The notes under the pieces were generated by a model. The model was not told the origin of the DNA. It saw only the letters and a program-made list of their open reading frames with translations, and ran no database searches. Both the position numbers and the translations under genes were made by a program. DNA of 64,000 bases from Escherichia phage P479: the sequence record MW269952.1. One strand, written 5' to 3'. Of the stretch, positions 12,619 through 46,300 are shown in pieces; within the stretch, counting starts at the first letter, position 1, and each line of letters starts with the position of its first letter.

Positions 12619-12623
12619 TTATA

Positions 12624-12647
12624 GGGAACCTTCGGGTTCCCTTTTTG
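12624..12647 (+). terminator. intrinsic terminator (after soc)
   Basis: GGGAACC-TTCG-GGTTCCC then TTTTT. Confidence 0.75.
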
Positions 12648-12649
12648 CT

Positions 12650-12690
12650 TTTAATAGAGATGGTATAATTATCTCAACTACAGAGGAGAA
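12650..12690 (+). promoter_or_regulatory. stem-loop with TATAAT in loop plus leader box
   Basis: AGAGATggtataattATCTC; box CAACTACAGAGGAG. Confidence 0.45.
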
Positions 12691-12694
12691 TACT

Positions 12695-12892
12695 ATGTTA
12701 AACCGTTGGATTAAACCAAACAAAACTTTAGACGAAGTTATTGCCCATGATGTACATTTTAAGTATGGTCTGGGTGCGTTTGATGAGGTTGTCGTACATT
12801 CATTCATGATGCACGATGATGATTCTTTAGAATTCAATATTGAAATCCGTTGTGATGATGGTAAAGTTGAATTTAAACGAGGTTTCCTATGA
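12695..12892 (+). CDS. hypothetical protein (65 aa)
   Basis: ORF after promoter/stem-loop cassette. Confidence 0.5.
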   Translation: MLNRWIKPNKTLDEVIAHDVHFKYGLGAFDEVVVHSFMMHDDDSLEFNIEIRCDDGKVEFKRGFL

Positions 12893-13248
12893 TTAGTTGG
12901 CTCAAGAATTTATTCAAGACCAAAGCAGGCGAAGGTGTGGTTCCTGTTAGCCTACCAGATGTCAAGCTAAGAGAATATGTTTACATGGGCGATGGTATGA
13001 TGGAAGAAGTTCGTCGCCGACCAGAAAAAGCCGGTAATGTCGGACCAGGTGCATTGCCATTGAATTCGAAAAAGTTAAAAGAGCATCTGGATTCAAGACG
13101 TTCTACGAGTCATGTTGATACTACACCACATATCGATACTACTTCGATTGTGGTTACTGCAGCTGCAGTTAGTTCGTGGACTGGTGATTCGTCTTATTCC
13201 TCCTATGATTCAGGAAGCTGTGATTCGTCTTCCAGCTCGTGTGATTAA
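12889..13248 (+). CDS. hypothetical protein with Ser-rich low-complexity C-terminus
   Basis: 119 aa; tail DSSYSSYDSGSCDSSSSSCD. Confidence 0.5.
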   Translation: MISWLKNLFKTKAGEGVVPVSLPDVKLREYVYMGDGMMEEVRRRPEKAGNVGPGALPLNSKKLKEHLDSRRSTSHVDTTPHIDTTSIVVTAAAVSSWTGDSSYSSYDSGSCDSSSSSCD

Positions 13249-13443
13249 ATGAGAATTACAAGTTGGCTTAAAGATTGGTTGGTTACTCCAGGGATTGATG
13301 ATTCCTGGGTGGCCAGAGCCGAGGAAGAAATGCAGCGCGAAGCTGAAGAATGGGCCGCCGCAAGCGTCAAAGATATGCAGGAAAAGAAGACCGAACGAGC
13401 TGCGCTTAAACTGATGCGTGATATCTACGGAGATAAATCATGA
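13249..13443 (+). CDS. hypothetical protein (64 aa)
   Basis: ORF abutting the previous stop. Confidence 0.45.
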
Positions 13444-13589
13444 CACAAGAAGAAGCTGAACGTCAGGCAAAAGAAGCACTGGATTTGCTTTTGAAAATTG
13501 GCAGTAAAATGATGGAAGAAAATGAAAAGTACATCAAGGAAAATAAAGTTCCTGATGGTCCATTAGTTGGTAAGAGGAAAACATTATGA
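13440..13589 (+). CDS. hypothetical protein (49 aa)
   Basis: ATGA overlap; charged; hand-translated. Confidence 0.35.
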
Positions 13590-14068
13590 AAGTATATGAA
13601 TTAGAATTCTATATCCGTGATTCATCCGGCCAAACACGACCTTACGATGCAACAGCCTGTCTTATCATGGTTTACAATGGCATGGATTCGGTTACTGAGT
13701 TGGAAACAAAATTAATGAACCTGACGATGCCAGAAAATGTCACGATGAAGGTATTTCATAACAAAAACGTTAATGTGGCTGAAGGGTGTCCGTTTACTGT
13801 TTCCGAAGCTCTGCATATCAAAGGCTATCGCCACCCGGACCTTTATGGCGAAGATATCATTTTCTATAAAGATAGAGATAAAATGGCCACTGAACGCCTT
13901 AAAGGTCGCACATATCTGATTTCCACTACCGACGACCTTGCTGAAGTTGAACGTCAGATTTGGAAGCACTTTGATATCGGCTTGCGCTTTACTTTAACAG
14001 AAGAAGCTATTCAAGATACTAAAATGCGTGCTCGTATGTATGGTTACGGTCCTATCGGTGGCTACTAA
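13586..14068 (+). CDS. hypothetical protein (160 aa)
   Basis: ORF, ATGA-coupled. Confidence 0.55.
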
Positions 14069-14247
14069 TGGATTTATTTGAACTTTTTGAAGAGCCTAAA
14101 GCTCCCACAGAAGCCCGTGTGGACCTATTTGACGAACTTGATGCGATTATACAGAAGCATGGTTTTAGTCTCCCAATGGAAGTTCTACGCGACCTGGCCT
14201 CATATTACGACGACCCACCTCCATGGGCACCATGGGTGAAACGATGA
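14068..14247 (+). CDS. hypothetical acidic protein (59 aa)
   Basis: TAATG coupling; hand-translated. Confidence 0.35.
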   Translation: MDLFELFEEPKAPTEARVDLFDELDAIIQKHGFSLPMEVLRDLASYYDDPPPWAPWVKR

Positions 14248-14477
14248 ACTGGTTAACAAATATTCCCACATCGGCGCTGGATATCGACCGTAAACACGCT
14301 CATAAGGAAATTGAGCAACAAAAAATTAATCGCTTACAAAGGATTAAGACTGAATCCGAGACAATTAAAGTCAAACGCCCGACAGAATCGAAAAGTTCTT
14401 ACTCATCATATCAATCTCCGATTGGCATGGCCGCAGACATTGCAGTCTTTGGCGTCCCACTTGGAGTATTTAAGTAG
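14244..14477 (+). CDS. hypothetical protein (77 aa)
   Basis: In-frame ATG inside track ORF 14223..14477, coupled by ATGA. Confidence 0.45.
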   Translation: MNWLTNIPTSALDIDRKHAHKEIEQQKINRLQRIKTESETIKVKRPTESKSSYSSYQSPIGMAADIAVFGVPLGVFK

Positions 14478-14533
14478 TTTACTTACTCCCCTCCTAATGA
14501 CATAATGGTCTTTCTTACAACAGAGAGGCCATT

Positions 14534-15094
14534 ATGAACATCATCAAATCTGATACCGAACCCAACCAGTTAAAATTTAGTGAAATGGAGATAGCTTCAT
14601 TATTTGAATGCCGCACATCAAAAGTCGATAAGACCTTGCATTCAAACGTTAACTCAATCATCAAGTCAAGGTTATCTGTACCTGATACAGTCTTGTATCG
14701 TGGGGTTACCCAGCAAGAGATTGATTTGTTAGATGAAGCAAAAGAATCAATGCAACCTTTTGAATTTGGAAGGATAACCTCCTTTACAGAAGACTATGGT
14801 ATTGCCAGGGATTTTGCTGCAATGGAATATGTGTCAAGGACTATCATCAGATTGAATCATACAAAAGCTTTTTGTTACCATGATGCGATGCGCAAAATCG
14901 CGCTTGATGTTCCACTGGAATTCTTCAATACAGCCTCTGGTTCCAAACAGGCAGCAACGTTAAGACGTGAAGAATACATGGACATGATTGATTCTGAGCT
15001 TGAATGGTTTGTTCCAGTTGACCAGAAATTCGTGGTGGTTGATGCTGGATTTGTTGGTGATTATTATGTTCTTGACTGTGTACAAGAGCAATAA
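14534..15094 (+). CDS. ModA/ModB-like ADP-ribosyltransferase (paralog 1)
   Basis: 186 aa; R-S-E triad candidates LYRG, SFT, ELEW; position between soc and dda as T4 modA/modB. Confidence 0.6.
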   Translation: MNIIKSDTEPNQLKFSEMEIASLFECRTSKVDKTLHSNVNSIIKSRLSVPDTVLYRGVTQQEIDLLDEAKESMQPFEFGRITSFTEDYGIARDFAAMEYVSRTIIRLNHTKAFCYHDAMRKIALDVPLEFFNTASGSKQAATLRREEYMDMIDSELEWFVPVDQKFVVVDAGFVGDYYVLDCVQEQ

Positions 15095-15138
15095 GACACG
15101 TTAAGATGTTCCTATCAACTACTGATGAGGATAATAAA
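15072..15138 (+). promoter_or_regulatory. early promoter (inside 3' end of upstream gene) plus leader box
   Basis: TTGACTGTGTACA then GTTAAGATGTTCC; box CCTATCAACTACTGATGAGGATAATAAAATG. Confidence 0.5.
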
Positions 15139-15753
15139 ATGCTGTACGCAAGTCACCAATTAGCAGAGTACATCAATGCAGTTAAATGTGAATATTTTCG
15201 TGAAAATACCCAGATTGAAATTGATGAAATTTACTCTGAGTTGGAACAGAGTACACTCTGGCAGTGCATGGAAAATAAGCCAGACACTATCCAGGAAACT
15301 TTGAACAAAATTATTCGTAAGAATTTGACTTCTGTTGTGCCTGGTAAGTTATATCGCGGGATTTCTAAGAAAACTTTGGCATATCTTGAAACCGTAGGAT
15401 GTGTTGGTGCTACGATTGAGTTTGACCGTGTAATGAGTTTCTCCAAAGATTTCAGTGTTGCGCGTAACTTTGCTTCCTTTAGCTTCTATGGAACCAAAAA
15501 TATTTTCTGTATTAATGATGCACCATTCGCATTTGATTATCAGGAAGCGATTTTTAAAATGATTTGTGCGGCACCTCCTGAAGAGTTCAACGGACTATAT
15601 CCTGAAATAACTCGTTCTTCAAACTTGCAATTAGTAAATGATGAAGATGAGATGATGTTCCCTGCGGGAACTACGCTACGCGTGGACTCTATTGAGAGCA
15701 TTTATAGATGGGAAGACTATAAATTATGGAATCTTTCCGTTCTTTCTTACTGA
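15139..15753 (+). CDS. ModA/ModB-like ADP-ribosyltransferase (paralog 2)
   Basis: 204 aa from ATG 15139 (track N-terminus reads through the conserved leader); LYRG, SFS, EDE motifs. Confidence 0.6.
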   Translation: MLYASHQLAEYINAVKCEYFRENTQIEIDEIYSELEQSTLWQCMENKPDTIQETLNKIIRKNLTSVVPGKLYRGISKKTLAYLETVGCVGATIEFDRVMSFSKDFSVARNFASFSFYGTKNIFCINDAPFAFDYQEAIFKMICAAPPEEFNGLYPEITRSSNLQLVNDEDEMMFPAGTTLRVDSIESIYRWEDYKLWNLSVLSY

Positions 15754-15827
15754 AGTATTCTGGGTTAACAAAAGGCCAAAGACCTTAGAACCATTATACA
15801 CAGTAAAAATAAAAGCGTTAAAGGCTA

Positions 15828-15880
15828 AAAAGTAGTGTACATAAAAGATGTATAGTGTATAATGAATCCATACTGAGTTT
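15828..15880 (+). promoter_or_regulatory. early promoter cassette
   Basis: AAAAGTAGTGTACA; TATAAT 15858-15863 (17-bp spacer); box CCATACTGAGTT. Confidence 0.6.
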
Positions 15881-15909
15881 TCAATCGTCCGTAAGATGAG
15901 AAAAATATC

Positions 15910-16653
15910 ATGAATATGTCAAAAGAAGAGTTTGAATTAAAAGTTTACAAACGTCGCGAGCATACCAAAACGTCTGCAAAACGTCGTAACAAGGATTTCA
16001 ATCTGTCTAGTAAGTATATCGCCAATCTTTTGAAACAAGAATTCTGTGCGTATTCTGGTGAACGTTTTGATGAAAATTCAACTCAAGATAAAGTTTCCTT
16101 TGAACGCTTTAACAATGATATAGGTTATATTGAAGGCAATGTTATCCCTGTCAAAACTAAGTACAACGGTTTACGTGCTGATTTATCTCTTGATGAACTT
16201 AAACGTGCGCAGACTCGTTTGGCGGTGCGTATTAATGGCGGTTCTAAGATGCCCAATAGTTTTAAAGTAACTCCTGCTGACTATTATAAAATTCGCAAAA
16301 TTGTTAAAAATATTAAAGATACCGAACGTGGAATCAAGAAACGTCAAAAACATTTAAAAGAGCTTTATAAAAGTGGCGCTAAAGATACCACCCCTTCTGT
16401 GATTGCAGTCAAGGCTCGTATCCATGGACAAATGGCTTCCATCGGAACTAGTCAACGTGGGCTGAAAATGGTTATGGGTGGTCCTGACTGGCGTCTGAAA
16501 ATGAAATCATCTGACGCTGAAACGCGTTACGATATGTATGATAAAATTATTCAAGGTCTGGAGCGTTTAGATAAGTTGTCATTCATTGACCGCCTTAAAC
16601 TGAAACGTGGTCTACCTTTGAACGCGTCAATTTTTAAACTGATTAGAGGTTAA
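15910..16653 (+). CDS. srd: Srd-position protein with degenerate HNH-like segment
   Basis: 247 aa between mod genes and dda; basic; weak HNH-like FERFNNDIGYIEGNV without the catalytic His; assignment by position and size only. Confidence 0.35.
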   Translation: MNMSKEEFELKVYKRREHTKTSAKRRNKDFNLSSKYIANLLKQEFCAYSGERFDENSTQDKVSFERFNNDIGYIEGNVIPVKTKYNGLRADLSLDELKRAQTRLAVRINGGSKMPNSFKVTPADYYKIRKIVKNIKDTERGIKKRQKHLKELYKSGAKDTTPSVIAVKARIHGQMASIGTSQRGLKMVMGGPDWRLKMKSSDAETRYDMYDKIIQGLERLDKLSFIDRLKLKRGLPLNASIFKLIRG

Positions 16654-16657
16654 TGTG

Positions 16658-16954
16658 ATGTACTACGCATATGTGCTGGTTCACAAAGATAAAGATGGTT
16701 TTGAACGCCCATTGGAGTATGATGGAAAGGTTACCTTATACACCACAAAAGCGGGCGCAGAATATGAACTTGCCAACTATTCATATACTACAAACCGCTA
16801 TTTACGCATGGGACGTATTGAAACACGGTATACTCCCAGAAAATGGTGGTTTGATAAGCGGGAAACAAAAACTGTTTTTCCTACTGAAGAACACGCACGA
16901 GAATTGAAATTAGTTTTAGATACTTTATATGTTAAGCGAGTAAAATTGGCATGA
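16658..16954 (+). CDS. hypothetical protein (98 aa)
   Basis: ATG 16658 directly after GTG; overlaps dda start. Confidence 0.5.
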   Translation: MYYAYVLVHKDKDGFERPLEYDGKVTLYTTKAGAEYELANYSYTTNRYLRMGRIETRYTPRKWWFDKRETKTVFPTEEHARELKLVLDTLYVKRVKLA

Positions 16955-18279
16955 TTAAATTTGAAGACTTGAACACAGGACAAAAAGAAGCTTTTGATTA
17001 TATCACTGAAGCTATTCAGCGACGTTCAGGGGAATGTATCACTCTGAATGGTCCAGCTGGTACAGGTAAAACTACTCTGACAAAATTTGTCATTGACCAT
17101 TTAGTGCGTAATGGAGTTATGGGAATTGTGCTTGCTGCACCAACTCACCAGGCGAAAAAAGTTTTATCTAAATTGTCTGGTCAAACAGCGAATACAATCC
17201 ATAGTATCTTGAAGATTAACCCGACCACATATGAAGACCAAAACGTTTTTGAACAGCGCGAAATGCCTGATATGTCAAAATGTAATGTTCTGGTTTGTGA
17301 TGAAGCGAGTATGTATGACGGGTCTCTGTTTAAGATTATTCTTAACTCTGTTCCTGAATGGTGTACTATTCTTGGGATTGGTGATATGCACCAGCTGCAG
17401 CCAGTTGACCCAGGAAGCACACAACAAAAGATAAGCCCATTCTTTACGCATCCTAAGTTCAAACAGATTCATCTGACTGAGGTCATGCGAAGCAATGCTC
17501 CTATCATTGAAGTGGCGACAGAAATTCGTAATGGTGGCTGGTTCCGTGATTGTATGTATGAAGGTCATGGCGTACAGGGGTTTACCTCACAAACCGCTTT
17601 AAAGGATTTCATGATAAACTATTTCGGTATTGTAAAAGATGCTGATATGTTGATGGAAAACCGGATGTATGCTTACACGAATAAATCAGTTGAAAAACTG
17701 AACAATATTATTCGTCGCAAGCTCTATGAAACGGATAAAGCATTTTTACCGTATGAAGTCCTGGTTATGCAAGAGCCGCACATGAAAGAGCTGGAATTTG
17801 AAGGCAAGAAATTCAGCGAAACCATTTTTAATAATGGTCAGTTGGTTCGCATCAAGGATTGCAAATACACTTCCACCATTCTCCGTTGTAAAGGGGAATC
17901 ACACCAGTTAGTGATTAATTACTGGGACCTGGAAGTTGAGTCAATTGATGAAGATGAAGAATATCAGGTTGACCGCATCAAAGTTTTACCAGAAGACCAG
18001 CAACCAAAATTCCAGGCATATCTGGCTAAAGTTGCTGACACATACAAACAGATGAAAGCCGCTGGTAAACGTCCAGAGTGGAAAGACTTCTGGAAAGCTC
18101 GCCGGACCTTCTTGAAAGTTCGTGCTCTTCCGGTCAGTACAATCCACAAGGCCCAGGGCGTTTCAGTGGACAAAGCATTCATCTATACTCCATGCATCCA
18201 TATGGCCGAAGCTTCATTAGCGAGCCAGTTGGCTTATGTTGGAATCACACGAGCGAGGTACGACGCATATTATGTATAA
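16951..18279 (+). CDS. dda: Dda DNA helicase (SF1)
   Basis: 442 aa; Walker A GPAGTGKTT; T4 Dda is 439 aa. Confidence 0.9.
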   Translation: MIKFEDLNTGQKEAFDYITEAIQRRSGECITLNGPAGTGKTTLTKFVIDHLVRNGVMGIVLAAPTHQAKKVLSKLSGQTANTIHSILKINPTTYEDQNVFEQREMPDMSKCNVLVCDEASMYDGSLFKIILNSVPEWCTILGIGDMHQLQPVDPGSTQQKISPFFTHPKFKQIHLTEVMRSNAPIIEVATEIRNGGWFRDCMYEGHGVQGFTSQTALKDFMINYFGIVKDADMLMENRMYAYTNKSVEKLNNIIRRKLYETDKAFLPYEVLVMQEPHMKELEFEGKKFSETIFNNGQLVRIKDCKYTSTILRCKGESHQLVINYWDLEVESIDEDEEYQVDRIKVLPEDQQPKFQAYLAKVADTYKQMKAAGKRPEWKDFWKARRTFLKVRALPVSTIHKAQGVSVDKAFIYTPCIHMAEASLASQLAYVGITRARYDAYYV

Positions 18280-35967: not shown

Positions 35968-36239
35968 AACTCCATACGTGCGAAGCAACTGAATTAGTTA
36001 TTCTCATTGATGAACTTTTTAAAATTCATGCTGCTGTCGGCGACGAAATCTATGCAGAAATTCTTTGTGATTTGGATAGTAGTTTTGGCTATATCCAACC
36101 AGAATACACAATTCGGTTTTCTTGTGAACGTCCAGGTTATGCTAAAGTAACTTTCGGGTCCGGTTTAGATGAAGAACAAGTCTTAAGTGAAATCCAGGAA
36201 GAAATTGATGATTTTGGTTTAGAAGATTATATTGATTGA
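35958..36239 (+). CDS. hypothetical acidic protein (93 aa)
   Basis: ORF. Confidence 0.5.
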   Translation: MITKLHTCEATELVILIDELFKIHAAVGDEIYAEILCDLDSSFGYIQPEYTIRFSCERPGYAKVTFGSGLDEEQVLSEIQEEIDDFGLEDYID

Positions 36240-36249
36240 GGAGTAAGCT

Positions 36250-36414
36250 ATGAGTCATAACTTAGAGAACACCATCACTGGGCAACGCACACGCGAGCAG
36301 GCTTGCTTTGAGGAATTCCTTGGAGCTGATTTTAAGTTCCAGGAACCAGTTGAACAGATGTATCAGGAATATGTTGTACAGATGAAAAATCATGTGTACA
36401 ACCCAGAGGAATAA
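36250..36414 (+). CDS. hypothetical protein (54 aa)
   Basis: RBS TGAGGAGTAAGCTATG; hand-translated. Confidence 0.4.
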   Translation: MSHNLENTITGQRTREQACFEEFLGADFKFQEPVEQMYQEYVVQMKNHVYNPEE

Positions 36415-36472
36415 TAGTACAATATCCTTACTGAATAATTGAATGTCTTATTGAATACTTGAGTAAATTAAA

Positions 36473-36748
36473 ATGACTAAATTTGAAATCGTTTCTGAAA
36501 TTGTTACTGTAACTTCAATTTTGATTAAAACCGACCGGGAAGATATTACGATGAAGCGTGATGTGTTTATCGCGTTTTTGAATGAGTTGGGATTGCGGAA
36601 TGAGAATGGGAATGAGTTAAACAATGTATCGTTTAACAAGTTGTTTAAAAGTTTATCCGAAGATGAAATTGAACAAATCATTGAACAATTTAACGAAGGA
36701 TTCGAAGATATACACCGTTATCTTATGATGTATACCTCCGGATTCTAA
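36473..36748 (+). CDS. asiA: AsiA anti-sigma70 factor
   Basis: 91 aa; VTVTSILIK, FIAFLNE, FNEGFE, RYLMMYT match T4 AsiA. Confidence 0.85.
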   Translation: MTKFEIVSEIVTVTSILIKTDREDITMKRDVFIAFLNELGLRNENGNELNNVSFNKLFKSLSEDEIEQIIEQFNEGFEDIHRYLMMYTSGF

Positions 36749-37398
36749 CGTGTACGCCCAAGCGTACGACCTGCTTGTCCACACATAGCAGAAAGCCTAT
36801 CAAAACCAAGGTTAGGTTTTTGCTTATACCAGTACAGTGAGACTGTACCTGCATAAACGTTTTCCAAATTAAAGAATGGGCAGCTGAACATATATGCGAA
36901 GCTGCTTTTTTTCTTTGTTGGTAAGAATACAGATTCCGTACTGGATTCAAAATAATTACCATTAACCCCCGCCAAATATTCCGCCGAAGTCTTATCTATT
37001 GGAAACCCACCTAAATTTTTTTCGTCGACTGTATCAGGCAATATCCCCTCGTATCCCACCATATCCACAAAGTAGTTAAGGTTAGTTGGTCTAAAAGAAT
37101 ATATTGCTGTAAAGTCTGCCCCACTTGACGAGTGGACTATCTGGATTTGCTCGATAGCTGCAATTTTAAATCTGTTATCCTGGTCTTGCCTTATCATTTC
37201 AGTGTATGAGGCATATGAAGCATCCCTGTACGCATCTAAAATTGCATCACCTTTATACCAGATTACCGCCATTAAAAATAATAGAACAATAACTAGTACC
37301 CTGGAAAAAACAACTTTCCCGGTCGCATTATCTTTAAAAATTCTATCAAGAAGTCCAAAAAGTAGGTCGGGTATTGATATTCCTACTTTTGGTTCCAT
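36745..37398 (-). CDS. t: Holin T
   Basis: 217 aa; LLFGLLDRIFKDNATGKV, N-terminal TM, MCGQAGRTLGR match T4 gpt; late promoter upstream. Confidence 0.9.
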   Translation of the reverse strand: MEPKVGISIPDLLFGLLDRIFKDNATGKVVFSRVLVIVLLFLMAVIWYKGDAILDAYRDASYASYTEMIRQDQDNRFKIAAIEQIQIVHSSSGADFTAIYSFRPTNLNYFVDMVGYEGILPDTVDEKNLGGFPIDKTSAEYLAGVNGNYFESSTESVFLPTKKKSSFAYMFSCPFFNLENVYAGTVSLYWYKQKPNLGFDRLSAMCGQAGRTLGRTR

Positions 37399-37416
37399 AC
37401 TTTTCTCCTTTAAAGA

Positions 37417-37424
37417 TATTTATA
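37417..37424 (-). promoter_or_regulatory. late promoter TATAAATA (holin t)
   Basis: Minus strand TATAAATA ~19 nt upstream of t ATG, RBS GGAG between. Confidence 0.65.
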
Positions 37425-37439
37425 ATTTAATACTTCGTA

Positions 37440-38240
37440 TTATAACCAACGCCCGTAGATTGTACCTGTGGCACCCCATGAAGGAGAACTTCCTGCAACT
37501 GCTGCGCCAGAACCGCCACCGGCTCCAACTTTAAGAACCTTACCCCCATCCGACCATGCGTCTGCACCATTACCGCCAGCATCACCGCCCCGACCTGAGT
37601 GGGCGTTACCATAATCGTATCCACCGCCAGGGCTTTCATAAGAAGCACCGCCGCCGGAATACCCGCCACCGCCGCCAGGGCCAAATGGACGTCCACCACC
37701 ACCACCGATATCTTGCCAGTTGGCACCTGAGTGAGGACGATACGCAATGCCGCCGCCGCCGCCGCCACCGCCACAGATAACCCCATAGTTCCATATATGA
37801 AGTCTGCCACCAATATCGTTTACAATGCAGTCACCACCCCATTGACCGTTACCGTCGCCACCTGAATGGGTCCATCCGCCGTGGCCACCTCGACCCCACA
37901 TATGAACCCCACCATGAATATTCAAAGTAACATATTCGTTAGGTGTGTCGGCCTTCATAAAGAACAATGGAACATCACGGGTATAAGATACCAAATCACC
38001 TGTGATATTAAACACAATAGGCGCACTACCGGCTTCAAAGCAACGGTCGCGGAACCATTGGCCGTTAAAGTTATGGTCTGCTCCAAGTGTATGAATAATT
38101 TCTCTTGAGCGACCTGCAAATTGACTCATCCAGCAAGGAACACCTAATCTTAATTGACCAGCTGCTTGACTCATCCAGCGCTGGCCCGTTTCATTTACGG
38201 CTGAACTTCCAATCCAGCCAGGAACACCAACTACTGCCAT
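37440..38240 (-). CDS. 38: gp38 receptor-binding adhesin (T2-type, glycine-rich motifs)
   Basis: 266 aa with poly-Gly tracts between variable segments; directly downstream of gp37. Confidence 0.8.
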
Positions 38241-38254
38241 AATTTATCTCCAAA

Positions 38255-38267
38255 GGGGCAAAGCCCC
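38255..38267 (-). other. stem-loop between genes 37 and 38
   Basis: GGGGC-TTT-GCCCC then TTTGGAG RBS of gene 38. Confidence 0.4.
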
Positions 38268-38273
38268 TTGTTG

Positions 38274-41200
38274 TTAGAATTTAAAATAATTACTAATTTT
38301 GCGAGCAATTTTAGTGAAGAAAGGCGTTTTTAATTCTTTAATTTCTTCACTCATTTCCTGAATAGCCTTAATTAAAAGAGCATTCACAGCAGAGTTAGAA
38401 ATTGTTAAAATCTCTTCTGGGTTATCAAGAGATCCGACATTAGAAGTGCTAACAGCGTCCGGTAATACTTCTTGCAAATCCTGTGCGATAATACCAATCT
38501 CATGGCCGATAACTTCGCGGTCAGAAAGAGATTTAACTTTATCATAGGTTTTAACTTTGAGTTTATTTACCTTATCCACCGCATTCTCTTCGTAGTCTTC
38601 AACATTAATTTTCAAACGACGGTCAGAACGAATATAAACGTCGTTACAATATACAGAAGCACTAGATGTGAAATCACCATTTGCAGACCATTCGTACCAG
38701 CCGCCTTTGTTCATATGCATCATTACGGTAGCGTTACCACCGCCAGCATGAACACCCATTGACGCAAGATAATCAGCACCCCAATGAACTGCTTTCCAAA
38801 TTGAATATGCTTGGTTTTGTGAATCCTGACAGTCTACCAACAATCCAGCCGGGCGATCTCGCCAGTCTACCCATGCACCACCAGAAACTTCACCGCGAAT
38901 AAGCCCTTGATCTCCGGCAAAAGGAACACGCTCTCCCGCTTTAATCATTGCACCCTGGAAGTGATGACTAAATGAACCCCCATGATTATTTCGTATATGT
39001 AAAATACCCTCATCTGTAGCCCAGATAACAGCCTTTTCTGCATCGCTATCATCTTTAAACCAGATGTGGCGAGCGCCAGCAGAGTTTTTGATGGTTATTC
39101 CGGAAGGTCCATGCGCAGTAAAATTGCCAGCAACATCAAAATTCAAACTGTTATCTGTCCTGCGTTCCGTATAGAAGTGATAACCTTTGGAATCACTGAC
39201 TTCCATCACTGCCGCGCGACCAACTTCTGAATTTCCCCAATTATTAATAGAGAATCGTTCAGAGCTATTATTCATCTGATTTAGGTATAATGTACCATCA
39301 GTGAATGTTTCGCCAAAGAAACGAGTTTTAATTGCACCTGTCGCTAAAGTACGTTCAGTGGAAAAATGGGCGCCTTGACTATCTTCTAACTGGATGATGT
39401 TATCACGAGCGTTATTGCTATCACCCCAATGGTTAAATTTAAAATAATCTCGTGATCCTAAACGTCCGGCGTCAAAAGTCATCAAGCCTTTCATGTTAAT
39501 ATCACCGCCGACCAGAACGTTATCCGGGAAGTTAACTGTACCATCAGCATTAAATCTTGATGTATGGCCCTGTGTTCCATCTTCTTTGATATGGTGTATC
39601 ACGAATGTACCTGAATTAATTTCAGTACCTAAAGACCAAACTGCTTTACCTTGAAGGTATTTTTGCTTAACAATCGGATAATATTTGTTTACAGCATCAT
39701 CATCGATTTCCTGGAAAATAGGAGCTGCTTGAACATACTGAATATCATAACCACCAGCGCCTGCGCCATGACCAGTAAATTTAATATAGCCGTTTGCTGC
39801 GAACGTATTGTAACTTGATTGTAAATCTGGAATAGTAACTTTACCAGTATCTAAAGCTATACTAAACGGGCGAAGTGGACCGATATCGCCATGTTTACCT
39901 TCACCGTAAGCAGTTGGAATAATATGAAGACTTCCTTCTGAACGTCTAAAAATGACCCCGTAATCGTTGTTCCAGATGCGGAGCCCGTTAACAGCACTTG
40001 TAGTAATTTCACCAGCGGTGTGGACCGCTCTATCAACCAAAATATCTTTTTTAACAACAAGATTTTCGTTAATAGTTTGTTGCCCATTTAATACAGCCTC
40101 AATGGTATTATCTTTATTGCGCTGGATATAATGCATTGTGCCAGTGACATCAGATATTTCCATTATGTTTTTACGAGTACCATCTACTGTATTAAAGGTG
40201 TTACCCCACACAGAAAGCCTCATATCATCAACAGAACTTTGTCCTGATGTATTTCCTTTAAACACCAAAGAAGATGAACTAGCTTGTCCATCAATAGCAA
40301 TTAGTCCGCCGCGAACATCAAGATTGCCAGGAGTAACCAACAACCCGCCATGAGTGTTAACGTTTGTTACACCTTTGCCACGAAAATAATGGTGATATTT
40401 GCCGCTTTGGTGATAACCTAAAAGAGTTTGACCGTCGCCGAAGCCGTTTTTATCATTAGTAGTATTAACAATAACTAATGGGTAGTTTTGAGTTGTAGGA
40501 AGAATTAAATCAGAACCGTTGGTTGAATAACCCGCAACTAACTGTTTAAGGCTTGTAACTTCAGTTGGAGTTGTAAGTAAAGTATAAGCTCCATTATTAA
40601 TTGTATGGAACTGGCCGTCTTGTCTCCATTTCAGACCGGTGTCATTATCGCCTAAAGCAATAGAACCTTTACCTAAGGCAGAACCGACCATCGGCCCGGA
40701 TTCAATACCTACTGCAATAGAATGTCCTGCCTGTAAGCCGCCGGAATAAGAAAATGACAACATGTACTCTGTTGGGGTCGAACCCGAATACCAACTTATG
40801 CCATTATTTTCGCAAATTTCATGAAGTATTGCAGATGCCGGGTCGGTACGTACAACGCGCAAATAGTTTTTATCCGTGACAGAATTATTATTTGCTAATG
40901 AAGATATATCGTAATCGCCAATATTCTTACTGTCTGCATTAACAGTATTAGTATAAATTACTGGAGATTTTACCGATGTTCCGGCGGAAATAGACGGAGC
41001 ATAAAATAAACCGTCGCCGTTGAATGCAAAAATATTAGATGTTGAATTAGTGTAATCCTGAACACGAACGTTCAAGATTTGCTTGGTATCCCCAGCACGG
41101 TTTTGAGAATAAATTATACCTCTTTCGCGGGCATCAGCCAAATCCTGGAATCGAACATGCGCAGTACCATTAGCACGTACCAAAATCTCGCCCATATCCG

Positions 41201-41519
41201 TCATTAGGCGAGATTTTGCTGTGACATCACCAGTTGCTGTTATACTACCAGTAGTAGTAAAATGTCCAGACGTTTGTGAAATGGCTCCGGCTATAGTATA
41301 GGTACCGGTTTGGGTGTAATTTCCTTTATGGATAACGTTACCATCGATATTACCACCTTTAGCAAAGCCAAGGTCGATGATGGCGCCGGTGTCATCTTTA
41401 GTAAAAAGTAAGCGGTCTTTCAGGTTGATAGCCAGTTCACCTTCAGCAAGAACTGTTGGCGCCGGGCGAACGCCGGCAACCTTACTTCTTTTAAATTGTA
41501 TTTGTTTTAAAGTAGCCAT
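38274..41519 (-). CDS. 37: gp37 long tail fibre distal subunit
   Basis: 1081 aa; N-terminus MATLKQIQFKRSKVAGV; position after gp36. Confidence 0.88.
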   Translation of the reverse strand: MATLKQIQFKRSKVAGVRPAPTVLAEGELAINLKDRLLFTKDDTGAIIDLGFAKGGNIDGNVIHKGNYTQTGTYTIAGAISQTSGHFTTTGSITATGDVTAKSRLMTDMGEILVRANGTAHVRFQDLADARERGIIYSQNRAGDTKQILNVRVQDYTNSTSNIFAFNGDGLFYAPSISAGTSVKSPVIYTNTVNADSKNIGDYDISSLANNNSVTDKNYLRVVRTDPASAILHEICENNGISWYSGSTPTEYMLSFSYSGGLQAGHSIAVGIESGPMVGSALGKGSIALGDNDTGLKWRQDGQFHTINNGAYTLLTTPTEVTSLKQLVAGYSTNGSDLILPTTQNYPLVIVNTTNDKNGFGDGQTLLGYHQSGKYHHYFRGKGVTNVNTHGGLLVTPGNLDVRGGLIAIDGQASSSSLVFKGNTSGQSSVDDMRLSVWGNTFNTVDGTRKNIMEISDVTGTMHYIQRNKDNTIEAVLNGQQTINENLVVKKDILVDRAVHTAGEITTSAVNGLRIWNNDYGVIFRRSEGSLHIIPTAYGEGKHGDIGPLRPFSIALDTGKVTIPDLQSSYNTFAANGYIKFTGHGAGAGGYDIQYVQAAPIFQEIDDDAVNKYYPIVKQKYLQGKAVWSLGTEINSGTFVIHHIKEDGTQGHTSRFNADGTVNFPDNVLVGGDINMKGLMTFDAGRLGSRDYFKFNHWGDSNNARDNIIQLEDSQGAHFSTERTLATGAIKTRFFGETFTDGTLYLNQMNNSSERFSINNWGNSEVGRAAVMEVSDSKGYHFYTERRTDNSLNFDVAGNFTAHGPSGITIKNSAGARHIWFKDDSDAEKAVIWATDEGILHIRNNHGGSFSHHFQGAMIKAGERVPFAGDQGLIRGEVSGGAWVDWRDRPAGLLVDCQDSQNQAYSIWKAVHWGADYLASMGVHAGGGNATVMMHMNKGGWYEWSANGDFTSSASVYCNDVYIRSDRRLKINVEDYEENAVDKVNKLKVKTYDKVKSLSDREVIGHEIGIIAQDLQEVLPDAVSTSNVGSLDNPEEILTISNSAVNALLIKAIQEMSEEIKELKTPFFTKIARKISNYFKF

Positions 41520-41527
41520 AATGCCTC

Positions 41528-42175
41528 TTAATAATATCCAAAATCTTGTACGGAGTCTTTAAGAACGATTTGGTCAAAACGGGGCACGTGAGCCGGGTCT
41601 GATGCTGGGTTCCTAGAGAAGAAATTAGGTGCTGACAAGTTACCTGTCATTGTTTGCAATGTACTATTATTTAGTTCTACCTGTTGCTGGTTAGTTACAT
41701 TACCAAGACCAACTTGAGCTTTTGACGGAGTATTTCCTGGAGAAAATACACGACCTGTTTCATCATAAATTTGTCGAGCTAACGTATCACCCATAACAGT
41801 AAGACGTTTTGCTCCTGTCGTAGTGTCAGGGTCAAAAATAACGAATGGTGTTCCCGTTTCAGTCTCAAATCCAAACGGCCCTTTAATACGGAAAGATGCA
41901 GTAAATGGTGTGCCGCCCGTTCTCGCTCCCAACTTAATCCCGTAACCATTTGAATCGTTAAATGTCAAGCCTTGTTCGAAATATACGTTTGCTTTATAAT
42001 TACCACCAAGAGCTTTAGAAACGAAATCGTTATCGACTGCTTGTGGTTTGTTGTATTCGGAATAAATTTTATAAGTTTTGAAATATAAGTCATTACTGAC
42101 TGGTGTTAATGGGAAATTACCCTGGTGCCAGAGGACCGAACCTCCGGCTGTTGAGCCTAGTTTTAAATCTGCCAT
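41528..42175 (-). CDS. 36: gp36 long tail fibre hinge protein
   Basis: 215 aa (T4 gp36 ~221 aa); late promoter upstream. Confidence 0.8.
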   Translation of the reverse strand: MADLKLGSTAGGSVLWHQGNFPLTPVSNDLYFKTYKIYSEYNKPQAVDNDFVSKALGGNYKANVYFEQGLTFNDSNGYGIKLGARTGGTPFTASFRIKGPFGFETETGTPFVIFDPDTTTGAKRLTVMGDTLARQIYDETGRVFSPGNTPSKAQVGLGNVTNQQQVELNNSTLQTMTGNLSAPNFFSRNPASDPAHVPRFDQIVLKDSVQDFGYY

Positions 42176-42210
42176 TTATAAGTCCTCTTCAACCGGCATA
42201 TGATATTTTG

Positions 42211-42218
42211 TATTTATA
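42211..42218 (-). promoter_or_regulatory. late promoter TATAAATA (gene 36)
   Basis: Minus strand TATAAATA ~36 nt upstream of gp36 ATG. Confidence 0.65.
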
Positions 42219-42220
42219 AC

Positions 42221-42244
42221 GAAAAAAGGACTCCGAAGAGTCCT
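42221..42244 (-). terminator. intrinsic terminator on minus strand (after gene 35)
   Basis: Minus strand AGGACTC-TTCG-GAGTCCT then TTTTTT. Confidence 0.65.
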
Positions 42245-43373
42245 ATTGTTTTTCTCGTAGTTCGGCTGCGTATATCTTGCCGGCTCTCGGAGCTTGTGCA
42301 TCTGGTAATGTTACAATTGTATTACCTGTATTTGTTGCATCGTTTGCATATGACATCCTTATGCCGTTGACACCAAATTCAGCTGGTTTGAATGCCGAGT
42401 CACCTCTGGTTATCTCACCAATAACAATATTACGTATTGACCCAGTTCCCGCAGCTACAGTCCTTGATGTTACTACTGTAAAGCCATCGGCTCCCGCTGG
42501 AATCTCGACATATCTTTCGAAACTTGCCCATGCACCAGCTGGAACGTTTGCTGCAATATCGATGTTTGTATTTGATATCGGAGAAGTGCTAGGGCTTTTA
42601 AAGAATCGAACCGAAGTCCTTACAGTCCCGGCGGCTTTCAGTGCAGCGTCAAATGACATCTGAAACTTCAGGTAAAGCACATCCAAAGGTAAAAGGTTAT
42701 AGGTGCTCATAGGAGTCACCAGGTCCTCTGTGGGGAACCTTCTAATCGCGGTTGATGTTCCATCACCTGTTGATGAATACGTGTTCTCGTCTTCCGTTAT
42801 GCGCACAGGATAGCCTGTTGCTCCTATATCACTAAAGGTATCATAAATGACTTCAAGCGGAGTCGAAACATCCTCAACTAACTTCCCGTCATTATACTTA
42901 ACATGCTCCGAAACAATTACGTTCCGGCCGGTTATGTAAAAAGCCGAGTACGATGTATCAACTTTGTCAATCAGCCATTTATCTGGGAATGCCCTTGAAC
43001 CGCATTTACGGAACCAATCAATTAATGGCTGTGATGCGTTTAGTTTCCCTGAAGAAATAAAAGCAATCAATCTTCCGGCTGGAACAGATTCCACAAAGGT
43101 GATTAATGCCTGACTGATTGCATCATGTGTGCTAGTCAATGAATAGTTTTTCGTGTTAACAATTTTATTCGTAGTTGTATCAATTTCCAATAGAGTCAGA
43201 CCATTACCAAAAGTAGTTGGTCCAATTCGTTCATCCTGAAATTTGATATACGATTTCACCGTGGAAAGAGTACAGCTCCCTGCTATACTCATTTTAAATT
43301 TAACGGCATTATTTTCTGATATAACTGGCGTTTGGACGTATCCTTGTCCAAACTCTGCCATAAATTTTTCCAT
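42243..43373 (-). CDS. 35: gp35 long tail fibre hinge connector
   Basis: 376 aa (T4 gp35 372 aa); between 34 and 36. Confidence 0.8.
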   Translation of the reverse strand: MEKFMAEFGQGYVQTPVISENNAVKFKMSIAGSCTLSTVKSYIKFQDERIGPTTFGNGLTLLEIDTTTNKIVNTKNYSLTSTHDAISQALITFVESVPAGRLIAFISSGKLNASQPLIDWFRKCGSRAFPDKWLIDKVDTSYSAFYITGRNVIVSEHVKYNDGKLVEDVSTPLEVIYDTFSDIGATGYPVRITEDENTYSSTGDGTSTAIRRFPTEDLVTPMSTYNLLPLDVLYLKFQMSFDAALKAAGTVRTSVRFFKSPSTSPISNTNIDIAANVPAGAWASFERYVEIPAGADGFTVVTSRTVAAGTGSIRNIVIGEITRGDSAFKPAEFGVNGIRMSYANDATNTGNTIVTLPDAQAPRAGKIYAAELREKQ

Positions 43374-43381
43374 ATTACCTC

Positions 43382-46300
43382 TTATTCAATCCATTCGAAC
43401 TTAACGGATTTAGTGGTCGGGTCTGGGATGATACGCACGTTACCGATACGCAACCAATCGAGAATGGTTAAGTTCCCCATCGTTGTGTTGTCAGCCGGTA
43501 ATGCACCAACATCCTCTGCAGATGGAGGGTTATCCGCGGTGTAAACCATTGCGAAAGTCGTCCATGCAGATTTATTTTTCTGCCAGGTACGGGTATAACG
43601 AATAGTACCACCGTTCAATCCAGTTGGATAGCAAACCCAATCTTGATAGCACGAATCCAGCGTATTACCGAACTGAGTCAATGTACCAGGATATTTAATT
43701 TGTTTATCACGAACTGAATAGTCAAACCAGGTTCCGCGCAGTTTCTGACCAGAACTACTCAATACTTCGTCACCGAGCGAGCCGTCATCATTACGATAAC
43801 GAATAGCAGGCGAGGCGAAAGTTCCGTTTTCAGTTAACCAACCAGAAGCATTCCAAACTTCATCAGTTACCCCAGCAGGTTTAGTTTGAACTGTATCAAT
43901 GTTTACCTGACGTTTTAACTTCATTGTCCAGTAGCCAGGGAACTGGCTATAAGTCGGTTCATCATTGATATCGACAGACCAGAAGCCAACAGTATCTGCA
44001 GTCGGAGCTTGTGCGATAAGACTTGGTTTCGTACCGAATACACGGACCGGAGCATTCACACGGAGCACACCAGACATTGTATCACCGGCTTGGTTAACAA
44101 AGTTTCTATCTACAATCTCAACAGCGTTTTTCTCGGTCAGGACTTTAAATGCACCGCCACCGTTTGCTATGATATTACCAGCATCAAGAGTTTTAAGCAC
44201 TAAATTCTGCGAGTTATCACCCAGAGCCAGAGTTGCGCCAGAAGCTTCACCCGTCGTGGTTGCAATAGTACGACCATTTAGAACGTAATTATTTTTGGCT
44301 TGAACATCGTTACCGGCGCTGAGGTTGTTCAATACAGCAACATTACCCGAGGCGGTGTTTAATGTCAATACGTTAGTCGTATCGCCAATAGTCATTGTCG
44401 TTCCGGCGGAAGGAGCAGTGATTTTCCACTTGTTAGTTCCGTTAACAACATTCACAGTTCCGAACGTCGAAGTGCCAGCCGTTACATCAGTAAACACTGC
44501 AGTGCTCGTCGATACAACCGGAGCAGAGATATTTGTCTGTTTAGTAAGAGTTAACACACCTTCAACAGTCTGAGCAATATCACGACGAATAAACTGGGTC
44601 GAATCAAGGTTATCCAGTTTTTCAGCATTAACAGCCATCGCATTTATCGGTAAGAAGTTTTGCAATACGCGGTTTAATTCGTAAGGCGAAACCGCATATC
44701 CAGATTTTGCATAGCTAACCAGTTTACTTGGGTCCGGAGTATACACACCATTTGCATATGTAAATCCTGCACCAGTCGTTGTAGTTGCGGCCGAAGTAGC
44801 TGCACCAGAAGATAAACGAACAAATCCACGCAGTGTTTCAGATGCTTCCCAGGTTGTTTCCGTTTGTGCAATATATTTCAGCGCCGACGGACTGATGGCC
44901 AAGACTTTTGATGTGCCTGCTGTTGCTTCTGTGTTTGTCGCGATGCGAACAATACCTTCGGCATTTTCAGTGGCTTTTTTCGACATCAATTTAAGCGGAG
45001 TAACGATTGTTTTATCGTCAGTGCCGGTATTGACTTCACCCTGAGTTGCTAATCTTGCCGTACCACGCTGAGTCTCATTTGCTTCAAGAATATTCAGGCT
45101 ATAATGGTCCCAGAGCGTCCCTGTTTCTACTAAACCACTTAATGCATTAACAGAAGTACGAGCAGTATTATTAAATCTATTTTTAATTTTTAATGGGGTT
45201 GAGATACGAGTATCATCAGTTCCAGTATCAAATTCTGATTGCGTAGCAATCTCGGCTATGCCGGTTAACGTTTCTGATGCTTTACGGTCATTTAACGTTT
45301 TGGGAGTCACAGCTCTGGTATAATCGGTTCCTGCATCTGTTTCAACCTGGGTAGCAATCTCGATTAAACCGATACGGGAATCAAGAGCAGTTTTGCGATG
45401 TAACATTTCTGGAGTAACGACTGCGTTTGCCCATCCAGATTGAGAAGTACCAGCAATTACTTCACTTTCAACCGCAAGAATAACCGCGCCTTGCTGAGTG
45501 TAAGTAGCTTTGTACTGGTCAAGAGCTTTCGGGGAAACAACCAGATTAACCGTATTTTTATTATAAACGTTTGTACCATTTAATTCACGTGAAGCAGCAG
45601 GAGTTGTACCAGTCGTTGAAACGTAAGTTACAATACCAGATAGCGATTCTGAGCCCTGACGCGCTTGCAGTTTCTTTGGAGTGATAATTGTGGTATCATC
45701 TACACCTGCATCGGTTTCTTGCTGTGTGGCGAGTTCTGCGAGCCCACGTCTCGTTTCTGTTGCCGTACGTTCATTGAGTTTTTTCGGGGAAATAATTACA
45801 TCATCAACAAATGCAAAATCACTGTTCTGATTTACTTGAGCAGTCGTTGCGATTCTGGCAATGCCTCGTTGGTTCTCTTTAGCAACACGGTTGGCCAAAG
45901 TCTGAGGGGTAATTGCGAGTTCTTTCTCTGGGTTATTTTCATGGTCAACGTTTGCCTGAGTCTGGTTTGCCAGAGCAATAACACCAAGACGCGTACGCGT
46001 GGAATCATTTAATGAGTCAACCCGTTCAACAGTCGGAACGTTTTGAGCAACAACCCAATAACTTGTTCCAGACACTTCATCTTCTGCATATGACAATTCA
46101 ATAACTGGAGTATAACTGATATTACCATTAAAGGTCAATGAATCAACCATCACCCAAGTTGTATCCGGTGGATACTCGGAACGTTTAGGGAATTGCAGCA
46201 ATTTAATGTCAGATGCAATCTTATCACCAACAGCAGCTCTTATATTAACGGTCTGTGATTTACGGAGATAGTTCAGTGCAATCTTAACAATGTCGCCTTG

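Follow-up and report, generated by a model that had tools for sequence, protein, structure and literature searches.

Two neighbouring genes on the + strand of Escherichia phage P479 (MW269952.1) belong to the phage Mod ADP-ribosyltransferase family (PF26816 Mod_ADP_RT; PHROG 832; R-S-E clade), and they are very probably the modB- and modA-slot genes of a Gaprivervirus coliphage, each coding for a small, acidic, single-domain mono-ADP-ribosyltransferase of this clade. They lie within a window of 64,000 nucleotides, by which we mean the whole stretch of DNA analysed, as open frames at positions 14534-15094 (186 aa; ORF1) and 15106-15753 (215 aa; ORF2). A sequence-only reading had described the pair as tandem ModA/ModB-like ADP-ribosyltransferases, and this identification is borne out by sequence profiles and synteny as well as by the alignment of the catalytic residues and by the predicted fold. 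The two proteins are paralogues (34% identity over 121 aa, E 2e-18; BLASTP). Their strong divergence, which the same reading had pointed out, is real as a figure but not special, as T4 ModA and ModB share only ~25-30% identity with each other (our comparison; also PMC10468400).

Both ORFs match phrog_832, described as 'RNA polymerase ADP-ribosylase', far beyond chance (E 2.8e-28 for ORF1 and 1.3e-42 for ORF2). A family HMM built here gave 187 and 213 bits, respectively, and matched no other ORF; a third ART (Alt), sought across the window, was not found. Pairwise BLASTP of both ORFs against T4 ModA and ModB gave E-values of 3e-12 to 2e-24, so that the alignment check proposed for these two proteins turned out positive, but the C-terminus of Alt, included in the same proposal, has no detectable BLASTP similarity to either ORF. 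Local Pfam-A and NCBIfam scans returned no significant family match (sub-threshold hits were DRAT, E 0.02, and XopAI, E 0.16), evidently because PF26816 is missing from the Pfam copy scanned. This model is seen in precomputed annotations: it is assigned to P0001, which is 97% identical to ORF1, and carried by P0003, the GenBank protein 'ADP-ribosylase [Escherichia phage P479]' that is 100% identical to ORF2. A word-indexed homologue search yielded 2 sequences for ORF1 and 12 for ORF2, and an exhaustive profile search together with tblastn against phages was needed to recover the whole family.

The candidate R-S-E elements named in the sequence-only reading (LYRG; SFT/SFS; ELE/EDE) are present and fall on invariant or near-invariant columns of the family. 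In an alignment of 50-54 divergent members the R, G and E-x-E columns are invariant, and S and F are conserved in at least 90%. For ORF1 the motifs are LYRG (R56, G57), SFT (S83) and ELE (E155, E157), with the catalytic codons at 14699-14701 (R56), 14780-14782 (S83), 14996-14998 (E155) and 15002-15004 (E157) on the + strand. The corresponding LYRG, SFS and EDE motifs of ORF2 place R73, S100, E169 and E171 (numbering of a 204-aa product, see below) at 15355-15357, 15436-15438, 15643-15645 and 15649-15651, also on the + strand. Both sets align with R73/S99/E171/E173 of T4 ModB and R72/S96/E163/E165 of T4 ModA. NAD binding by T4 ModB depends on R73, and its E173 is indispensable, according to a preprint (bioRxiv 10.1101/2025.07.11.664405, citing Tiemann 2004); a R73A,G74A mutant is inactive (PMC10468400).

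Structure prediction gives confident models for both proteins (AF2 pLDDT 91.2 and pTM 0.84 for ORF1; pLDDT 94.5 and pTM 0.88 for ORF2), which are predicted with confidence to adopt the ADP-ribosyltransferase fold. A missing ART fold had been named as the result that would speak against the identification; instead, the top Foldseek PDB matches of both models are all R-S-E ARTs (probability 1.00, E 1e-6 to 1e-4), namely HopU1, iota Ia and C3 for ORF1 (E down to 1e-6) and Certhrax, HopU1 and C3 for ORF2 (E down to 8e-7). Matches in BFVD are phage modA/modB models (TM 0.76-0.85; 0.8 and above for ORF1). In the ORF1 model the conserved R lies in strand 54-57 and S in strand 82-85, and E157 opens strand 157-160. 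Both proteins are small and stand-alone (186 and 204 aa, about 21-24 kDa), inside the 160-230 aa or so typical of the Mod family, with one domain spanning the whole protein and no MuF or head-packaging domain. A PDB sequence search with ORF1 and ORF2 returned nothing meaningful, and therefore no structure of the Mod family appears to have been solved; a 2025 preprint likewise states that ModB has none.

The fold and the R / S-x-S(T) / E-x-E architecture of the models are shared with C3bot, iota toxin Ia, CDTa, Certhrax, Vis and HopU1. However, these proteins are only 8-17% identical to ORF1 and ORF2 (TM about 0.45-0.57), and they are secreted bacterial toxins or effectors with eukaryotic targets, neither phage early proteins nor part of the Mod family. 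T4 Alt is a 682-aa injected head protein with an R-S-E ART that modifies Arg265 of RNAP alpha. It is included in the same PHROG super-profile, phrog_832, and ORF1 and ORF2 align to the C-terminal positions of that profile (~1240-1440). Alt nevertheless differs as a large, virion-packaged protein of another ART family (Alt/VIP2) than Mod (PMC9503650).

The surroundings of the two genes follow T4 exactly, in agreement with the modA/modB position suggested from the sequence. The order is soc - mrh.2 - mrh.1 - srh - modA.4 - modA.3 - modA.2 - [ORF1][ORF2] - srd - dda.1 - dda, and matches to Pfam and PHROG give the neighbours as T4_MRH (modA.3), phrog_1647 (modA.2), Srd, Phage_Y01A (dda.1) and Dda. 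Placement of the mod pair between modA.2 and srd/dda is common to T4, VR5, SP18, PhAPEC2 and L011. The window shares 98.3% identity with Escherichia phage PSD2001 (Gaprivervirus); the source phage is a T4-like coliphage of the Tevenvirinae (Gaprivervirus). The earlier premise of a non-T4 host context is therefore wrong: its relatives infect E. coli and Shigella, and because of this the host proteins hit by T4 ModA and ModB are all present.

ORF1 is preceded by a Shine-Dalgarno sequence, GAGAGG (14523-14528, + strand), ending 5 nt upstream of the ATG at 14534. For ORF2 the start is most likely the ATG at 15139, not the in-frame ATG at 15106, giving a gene of 204 codons at 15139-15753 (+ strand). 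This start is preferred because GAGGA (15127-15131, + strand) lies 7 nt ahead of it while no Shine-Dalgarno sequence precedes 15106, because the homologues of Dhakavirus VR5 and Mosigvirus PhAPEC2 begin at the aligned Met and lack an upstream in-frame ATG, and because the PSD2001 annotation begins at the same Met. A Shine-Dalgarno sequence is also kept before the aligned start in VR5 (GAGGAG) and PhAPEC2 (AGGAG).

ORF1 and ORF2 are probably co-transcribed, since the gap of 11-44 nt between them has no promoter-like site; in Dhakavirus VR5, by comparison, a promoter-like sequence occurs between the two mod genes. A consensus scan placed a candidate sigma-70 or T4-early-like promoter just upstream of ORF1 (14478-14506, + strand; TTTACT-17-CATAAT with TG, where the preceding G gives GTTTAC). 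A second promoter-like site (15836-15863, + strand; TGTACA-16-TATAAT) matches the consensus in the 156-nt gap before srd and marks the downstream edge of the mod pair. The number of such sites in the region does not exceed shuffled expectation, and both are to be taken as candidates. Rfam returned no match anywhere in the window. The pair appears to sit among early or prereplicative genes that serve host takeover (srh, modA.3/mrh-like, srd, dda), and both genes would be expressed early.

Annotated relatives are found in Gaprivervirus and Dhakavirus, including Shigella phage SP18 (gp020/gp019) and the Escherichia phages PSD2001, P896, vB_EcoM_RZ, VR7, VR20 and VR5. Against the proteins of SP18, PSD2001 and P896, ORF1 is 96-99% and ORF2 100% identical, the gene order is identical, and the GenBank labels of these records already read ADP-ribosylase, modA or modB; essentially no difference separates the Gaprivervirus modB/modA records from ORF1 and ORF2. 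Outside this genus the two genes behave differently. ORF1 is conserved at 95-98% within Gaprivervirus, across about 33 phage genomes, and its tblastn matches among phages are bimodal, with 33 records at or above 90% identity and then none above ~32%. In VR5, of the sister genus Dhakavirus, the modB-slot protein is 32% identical to ORF1, compared with 81% for ORF2 and 66-87% for the flanking genes. Because ORF1 falls to 32% or less against Dhakavirus while its flanks remain at 66-87%, the modB slot seems to be a site of allele replacement, and rapid allelic replacement is observed in the two mod slots as well as at srd.

In an NJ tree of Mod proteins (Kimura distances, bootstrap), ORF1 forms a clade with the metagenomic proteins P0002 (61% identity), P0026 (40%) and P0024 (39%), with bootstrap values of 87-100. 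For P0026 and P0024, cultured phages offer no closer match, and among these phages the ORF1 clade, as judged by sequence, is restricted to Gaprivervirus. We also considered a small upstream ORF found only in Gaprivervirus (orf84, phrog_14077) as a co-inherited partner of the ORF1 type, but dropped it, as it is missing from the metagenomic L011, which has an ORF1-type gene (61% identity).

The correspondence of the pair to T4 ModA and ModB is positional and is not resolved phylogenetically. T4 ModB (NP_049636) occupies the slot of ORF1, where modA.2 is followed by the first of the mod genes, and resembles ORF1 in size, acidic pI, predicted ART fold, an 'LH' motif and a longer loop before the conserved Arg. 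It is the best T4 match of ORF1 (31% identity over 151 aa, E 2e-23, 80 bits, vs 49 bits for ModA; BLASTP) but does not group robustly with it, and ORF2 is equally similar to ModB. T4 ModA (NP_049635) occupies the slot of ORF2, immediately before srd as the second of the mod genes. Common to the two proteins are an NKPD motif, (F/I)PAG following E-x-E, and the shortness of the loop that leads to the conserved Arg; ModA differs in having S-A-S in place of S-F-S and in its long branch. By BLASTP, ORF2 is 38% identical to ModA over 153 aa (73 bits) and 36% identical to ModB, the latter at a slightly higher score (83 bits), and the best non-self matches of T4 ModA are found in the clade containing ORF2. 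The deep nodes of the NJ tree have bootstrap values of only 2-28%, with T4 ModA and T4 ModB each on its own long branch; the link of the ORF1 clade to ModB has 2-4%, and support for grouping ModA with ORF2 is negligible. Because of this low support for the deep branching, we claim no 1:1 orthology with T4 ModA or ModB. The caution of the sequence-only reading about targets was fair, since neither clade groups robustly with either T4 protein.

As for the mechanism, NAD+ would be bound by the beta-1 Arg (R56 in ORF1, R73 in ORF2) together with the beta-2 Ser, and E157 of ORF1 or E171 of ORF2, the catalytic Glu in E-x-E (the ARTT motif), would move ADP-ribose onto arginines of host proteins. Arginine specificity is expected because the motif is E-x-E and not Q-x-E, and from these residues ORF1 and ORF2 may be proposed to carry out NAD+-dependent arginine mono-ADP-ribosylation of host proteins. 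T4 ModA modifies Arg265 of both RNAP alpha subunits and is toxic if expressed in E. coli (PMC2988021), while T4 ModB combines ADP-ribosyltransferase activity with the RNAylation of rS1 and rL2 (PMC10468400). By analogy, ORF2 may act like ModA on RNAP alpha Arg265, and ORF1 like ModB on proteins of translation, among them S1, L2, EF-Tu and trigger factor, and perhaps with NAD-capped RNA as well; we regard this as a tentative expectation whose chances fall slightly short of even, and the T4 targets are not transferable to ORF1 and ORF2 with confidence. The use of NAD-capped RNA as a donor has been shown only for T4 ModB, and T4 ModA and Alt are poor at RNAylation (PMC10468400).

The substrate range of ORF1 in particular may differ, because it is 29-32% identical to all characterised or syntenic Mod proteins outside Gaprivervirus and because, in the alignment, it lacks the N-terminal helix (~17-20 residues) present in other members. 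A possible though not favoured reading is that ORF1 is not the functional equivalent of T4 ModB but a xenologous Mod allele that recombined into the modB slot and acts on another target set or with another NAD-derived donor, while still being an active, Arg-specific ART. The bimodal identity, the sharp drop against VR5 compared with ORF2 and the flanks, the well-supported clade with metagenomic proteins, and the shortening of both the N-terminus and the C-terminal hairpin are consistent with such an origin. Conversely, ModB remains the best T4 match of ORF1, its indel and motif characters are of the ModB type, slot and neighbours are those of T4 modB, and low identities are usual among these fast-evolving proteins: the two T4 ones are themselves far apart, and in other genera many of the Mod proteins reach only 30-40%. 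Carried further, the same observations would make the ORF1 clade a functionally distinct third Mod type, brought into the modB slot through recombination, with substrates or an NAD-derived donor unlike those of both T4 ModA and ModB, which we consider unlikely. The xenologous-allele reading fits the assignment of ORF1 to the Mod family and differs from a ModB-like role in the target only.

Two further readings concern the activity and purpose of the pair. Rapid allele turnover at both mod slots and srd could reflect an arms race with defence systems, in which ORF1 and ORF2 would mainly be counter-defence effectors whose substrates are nucleic acids or immunity proteins of the host and not its transcription and translation machinery. 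As a class, viral ARTs are described as fast-evolving conflict proteins (PMC9503650), and AcrIF11 is a phage ART acting as an anti-CRISPR (PMC12421852). Yet for the characterised members, T4 ModA and ModB, the known targets are RNAP alpha (PMC2988021) and proteins of the ribosome or of translation (PMC10468400), and the neighbours srh, mrh-like and srd are transcription modulators, consistent with host takeover, so that a mainly counter-defence role is improbable. It would be more surprising still if one of the two were a catalytically dead pseudo-enzyme kept as a decoy or scaffold for binding. Degenerate copies are frequent among tandem paralogues, and ORF1 is strongly diverged and the shortest of the family members compared; but both proteins keep all the invariant catalytic residues (R, G, S, E-x-E), both are predicted as complete, high-confidence ART domains, and ORF1 is held at 95-98% across its roughly 33 genomes.

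A Mod pair of active R-S-E enzymes remains the preferred reading, and the gene pair is already known rather than a new discovery. Near-identical proteins (about 97-99% for ORF1, 100% for ORF2) are annotated in GenBank, relatives including SP18 have carried the modB/modA annotation since about 2010, and mod genes are annotated in dozens of sequenced coliphages; the finding is accordingly correct but ordinary, with little weight as a discovery. Taken as a whole, the sequence-only reading stands on the ART identity, the R-S-E elements and the slot, but not on the host premise or on the divergence as something special. The T4 members of the Mod family have been studied since the 1990s. Of wider use is that T4-like coliphages of the same host carry at least 4 or 5 deeply diverged Mod lineages in two slots: T4 ModA, T4 ModB, a Dhakavirus/Mosigvirus upstream type, a shared downstream type and the Gaprivervirus upstream type. 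These lineages form a natural panel for the residues that set target choice or the use of NAD-capped RNA, a question left by the 2023 RNAylation paper (PMC10468400). If ORF1 were indeed a third type, comparing it with Dhakavirus ModB and T4 ModB in one E. coli host would reveal how Mod specificity, including RNAylation, is encoded.

The region around the two genes (window 13500-17000) matches Escherichia phage PSD2001 (Straboviridae, Tevenvirinae, Gaprivervirus) at 98.3% nucleotide identity, and ~35 further coliphage or Shigella phage genomes, including SP18, VR7, VR20 and vB_EcoM_RZ, at 85-97%. The window hence derives from a Gaprivervirus with an E. coli or Shigella host, like T4, and the 'non-T4 host context' assumed in the sequence-only reading is wrong. 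Both genes already carry the labels 'ADP-ribosylase', modB or modA in the records of PSD2001 and those other genomes; the product of the downstream gene, ORF2, is 100% identical to GenBank 'ADP-ribosylase [Escherichia phage P479]', and the upstream gene, ORF1, encodes a protein that shares 98.9% identity with the one annotated as ADP-ribosylase in vB_EcoM_RZ. Because public records annotate both, the pair is a known feature, and the sequence-only reading, while essentially right in its interpretation, loses its implied novelty along with its host premise.

ORF1 is an open reading frame at 14534-15094 (+ strand, 186 aa), preceded by a good Shine-Dalgarno sequence, GAGAGG, at 14523-14528 (+). 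ORF2 is open from a first ATG at 15106 (15106-15753, +, 215 aa), ahead of which no Shine-Dalgarno was read; GAGGA at 15127-15131 (+) instead precedes ATG 15139. The first Met of the ORF2 homologues in VR5 (Dhakavirus) and PhAPEC2 (Mosigvirus) aligns with ATG 15139, with the Shine-Dalgarno kept and no in-frame ATG further upstream, and the counterpart in PSD2001, the nearest genome, is annotated as 204 aa. On these three grounds we took ORF2 as 15139-15753 (+, 204 aa). The two neighbouring + strand genes form the tandem of paralogues that had been proposed (34% identity over 121 aa, E 2e-18). T4 ModA and ModB share ~25-30% (BLAST matrix; PMC10468400), which is of the same order, and the divergence of the pair is no distinguishing feature.

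The pair also lies where T4 has modB and modA, as the sequence-only reading suggested. Pfam and PHROG assignments give the order soc (12385), mrh.2, mrh.1, srh, modA.4, modA.3 (T4_MRH), modA.2, a small phrog_14077 ORF (14223-14477, +, 77-84 aa), ORF1, ORF2, srd (15910-16653, +; an Srd anti-sigma-factor homologue), dda.1 (Phage_Y01A) and the dda helicase gene (16951). The T4 order is modA.2 - modB - modA - srd - dda.1 - dda, which puts ORF1 in the slot of modB and ORF2 in that of modA. The phrog_14077 ORF probably starts at ATG 14244 (77 aa), and has a hydrophobic C-terminus and no assigned function. It occurs in Gapriverviruses at 82-100% identity; a tblastn search of the VR5, PhAPEC2, T4, S16 and JD18 loci returned no counterpart at E <= 1e-3. 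In a metagenomic relative (L011) modA.2 and the ORF1-type gene have no called gene between them, and the small ORF is hence not strictly tied to the latter.

Both proteins belong to the Mod family of ADP-ribosyltransferases (ARTs). They match phrog_832 'RNA polymerase ADP-ribosylase' (ORF1 E 2.8e-28, ORF2 E 1.3e-42), and near-identical database proteins carry PF26816 (Mod_ADP_RT); our Pfam scan of the pair gave no family match because PF26816 was absent from the model set used. A profile built from both paralogues recovered just 80 clusters (E <= 1e-3) among 1.84 billion cluster representatives; the family is small and confined to phages. Alignments of 50-54 divergent members leave no column invariant apart from R56, G57, E155 and E157 of ORF1 (R73, G74, E169 and E171 of ORF2), and S83-F84 (ORF1 numbering) is at least 90% conserved. 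Arginine-specific ARTs of the R-S-E clade bear the signature E-x-E, not Q-x-E. In an explicit alignment the conserved R/S/E/E fall on R73/S99/E171/E173 of T4 ModB and R72/S96/E163/E165 of T4 ModA, so that the elements picked out beforehand (LYRG; SFT/SFS; ELE/EDE) correspond exactly to the catalytic R-S-ExE. The counterpart of this family in Iyer et al. (PMC9503650) is their 'Mod family of the RSE clade'. In T4 ModB, NAD binding needs R73 and catalysis E173, as cited from Tiemann 2004 in a recent preprint (bioRxiv 10.1101/2025.07.11.664405), and the R73A,G74A double mutant has lost its activity (PMC10468400).

An ART fold is present in both confident AlphaFold2 models (ORF1 pLDDT 91.2, pTM 0.84; ORF2 pLDDT 94.5, pTM 0.88). 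The outcome that the sequence-only reading had named as refuting it, a structure prediction lacking an ART fold, therefore did not occur. As expected of this fold, consecutive beta-strands (54-57, 82-85 and 157-160 in the ORF1 model) each contain or begin with one of the catalytic residues, in turn Arg, Ser and the second Glu. The top Foldseek matches in the PDB are exclusively R-S-E ADP-ribosyltransferases (HopU1, iota toxin Ia, C3 exoenzymes, CDTa, Certhrax, Plx2a, Vis and XopAI; E 1e-6 to 1e-4, probability 1.00), and among predicted viral structures the ORF1 model matches phage modA/modB models at TM 0.76-0.85. A PDB sequence search with both proteins found no solved Mod structure, in agreement with a 2025 preprint (bioRxiv 10.1101/2025.07.11.664405).

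The BLAST matrix and an NJ tree (200 bootstraps) distinguish four robust clades. ORF2 falls in a 'downstream' clade with VR5 (81%), Gaprivervirus TH22 (66%) and PhAPEC2 (55%) (BP = 100). An 'upstream' clade unites Dhakavirus and Mosigvirus (BP = 100), which the lone mod gene of Salmonella phage S16 joins (BP = 71), and ORF1 groups with TH22 (95%) and the metagenomic homologues P0002 (61%), P0026 (40%) and P0024 (39%) (BP = 87-100). The fourth is T4 ModA and ModB, each forming one long branch; because deep nodes have only 2-28% support the tree does not settle one-to-one orthology with them. Softer sequence characters support the names given by position: T4 ModA finds its best non-self matches in the ORF2 clade, with which it has NKPD, a short loop and (F/I)PAG in common, and T4 ModB is the top T4 match of ORF1, the two sharing a longer loop and an 'LH' motif. 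A single mod gene fills the slot in S16 (Gelderlandvirus) and JD18 (Jiaodavirus), and the duplication is therefore limited to part of the subfamily.

In a per-gene comparison, ORF1 is 95-98% conserved within Gaprivervirus, but its identity to the VR5 gene in the same slot is only 32%, against 66-87% for flanking genes; in tblastn its identities show two modes, 33 records reaching >=90% and none of the others exceeding ~32%. ORF2 has counterparts at 100% identity in SP18 and PSD2001, against 66% in congeneric TH22 and 81% in VR5 (tblastn: 10 records at >=99%, 34 at 80-90%, 40 at 60-80%), and the modA-slot allele is mosaic within Gaprivervirus too. The srd gene is also mosaic (100% in PSD2001, 84% in VR5, only 50% in congeneric SP18 and TH22), which implies allele exchange between genera. 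The early region is therefore a mosaic of exchanged alleles, well known from T4-like genomes as their 'plastic periphery'.

The best-supported reading is that both genes encode active, arginine-specific mono-ADP-ribosyltransferases expressed before replication for host takeover. What the analysis shows is family membership, catalytic residues, fold and syntenic position; beyond that, each would modify Arg in an NAD-dependent manner, and both would be transcribed early. That one copy is a pseudo-enzyme is very unlikely, since every catalytic residue is intact in both. Tentatively, and with a little less than an even chance, ORF2 may modify Arg265 of RNA polymerase alpha, as T4 ModA does (PMC2988021), and ORF1 may target translation proteins, perhaps with NAD-capped RNA, like T4 ModB (PMC10468400). 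An ORF1 substrate range different from that of T4 ModB is a live alternative, with roughly one chance in three, because ORF1 forms a separate clade and has a truncated N-terminus. A bolder reading, in which the upstream enzyme of Gaprivervirus is a Mod type with a function of its own, has a modest probability.

Promoter-like sites, whose count is no higher than shuffled expectation, were found by consensus match just 5' of ORF1 (G-TTTACT-17-CATAAT with TG, 14478-14506, +) and ahead of srd; the same scan found none between ORF1 and ORF2. In VR5 (L003, 3520-3590) and PhAPEC2 (L005, 2430-2505) the mod genes are ~55 nt apart, with an early-promoter-like GTTTAC / GTGTACA ... TACTAT in the gap; the window's gap (15095-15138, 11-44 nt) is without this element. 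This suggests co-transcription of the pair in Gaprivervirus and separate promoters in Dhakavirus and Mosigvirus.

At 12623-12668 (+) a strong intrinsic-terminator-like hairpin (AGGGAACCTTCGGGTTCCCT plus T-run) follows soc. Directly past it, ahead of mrh.2, TTTGCTTTT-11 nt-TATAAT resembles a middle promoter of T4, in which the MotA box, (a/t)(a/t)(a/t)TGCTTtA, is set ~12 bp from the -10 element (PMC2988021), and may start a transcription unit reaching the mod genes. The mrh.1 homologue (12889-13248, +) has a C-terminal Ser/Asp/Cys-rich low-complexity tail (…SSYSSYDSGSCDSSSSSCD); in TH22 and VR5 only part of the gene aligns, at no more than 51-59% identity. Window 13249-14068 holds srh, modA.4 and one T4_MRH-family gene (modA.3-like, 13586-14068); T4 has a separate mrh between mrh.1 and srh, whereas the window lacks such a gene, and L011 has two T4_MRH genes. 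An Rfam scan of the entire 64-kb window gave no family at gathering score. GC skew, positive elsewhere in the window, falls from about +0.1 to -0.13 across 36000-44000, suggesting a minus-strand gene block.
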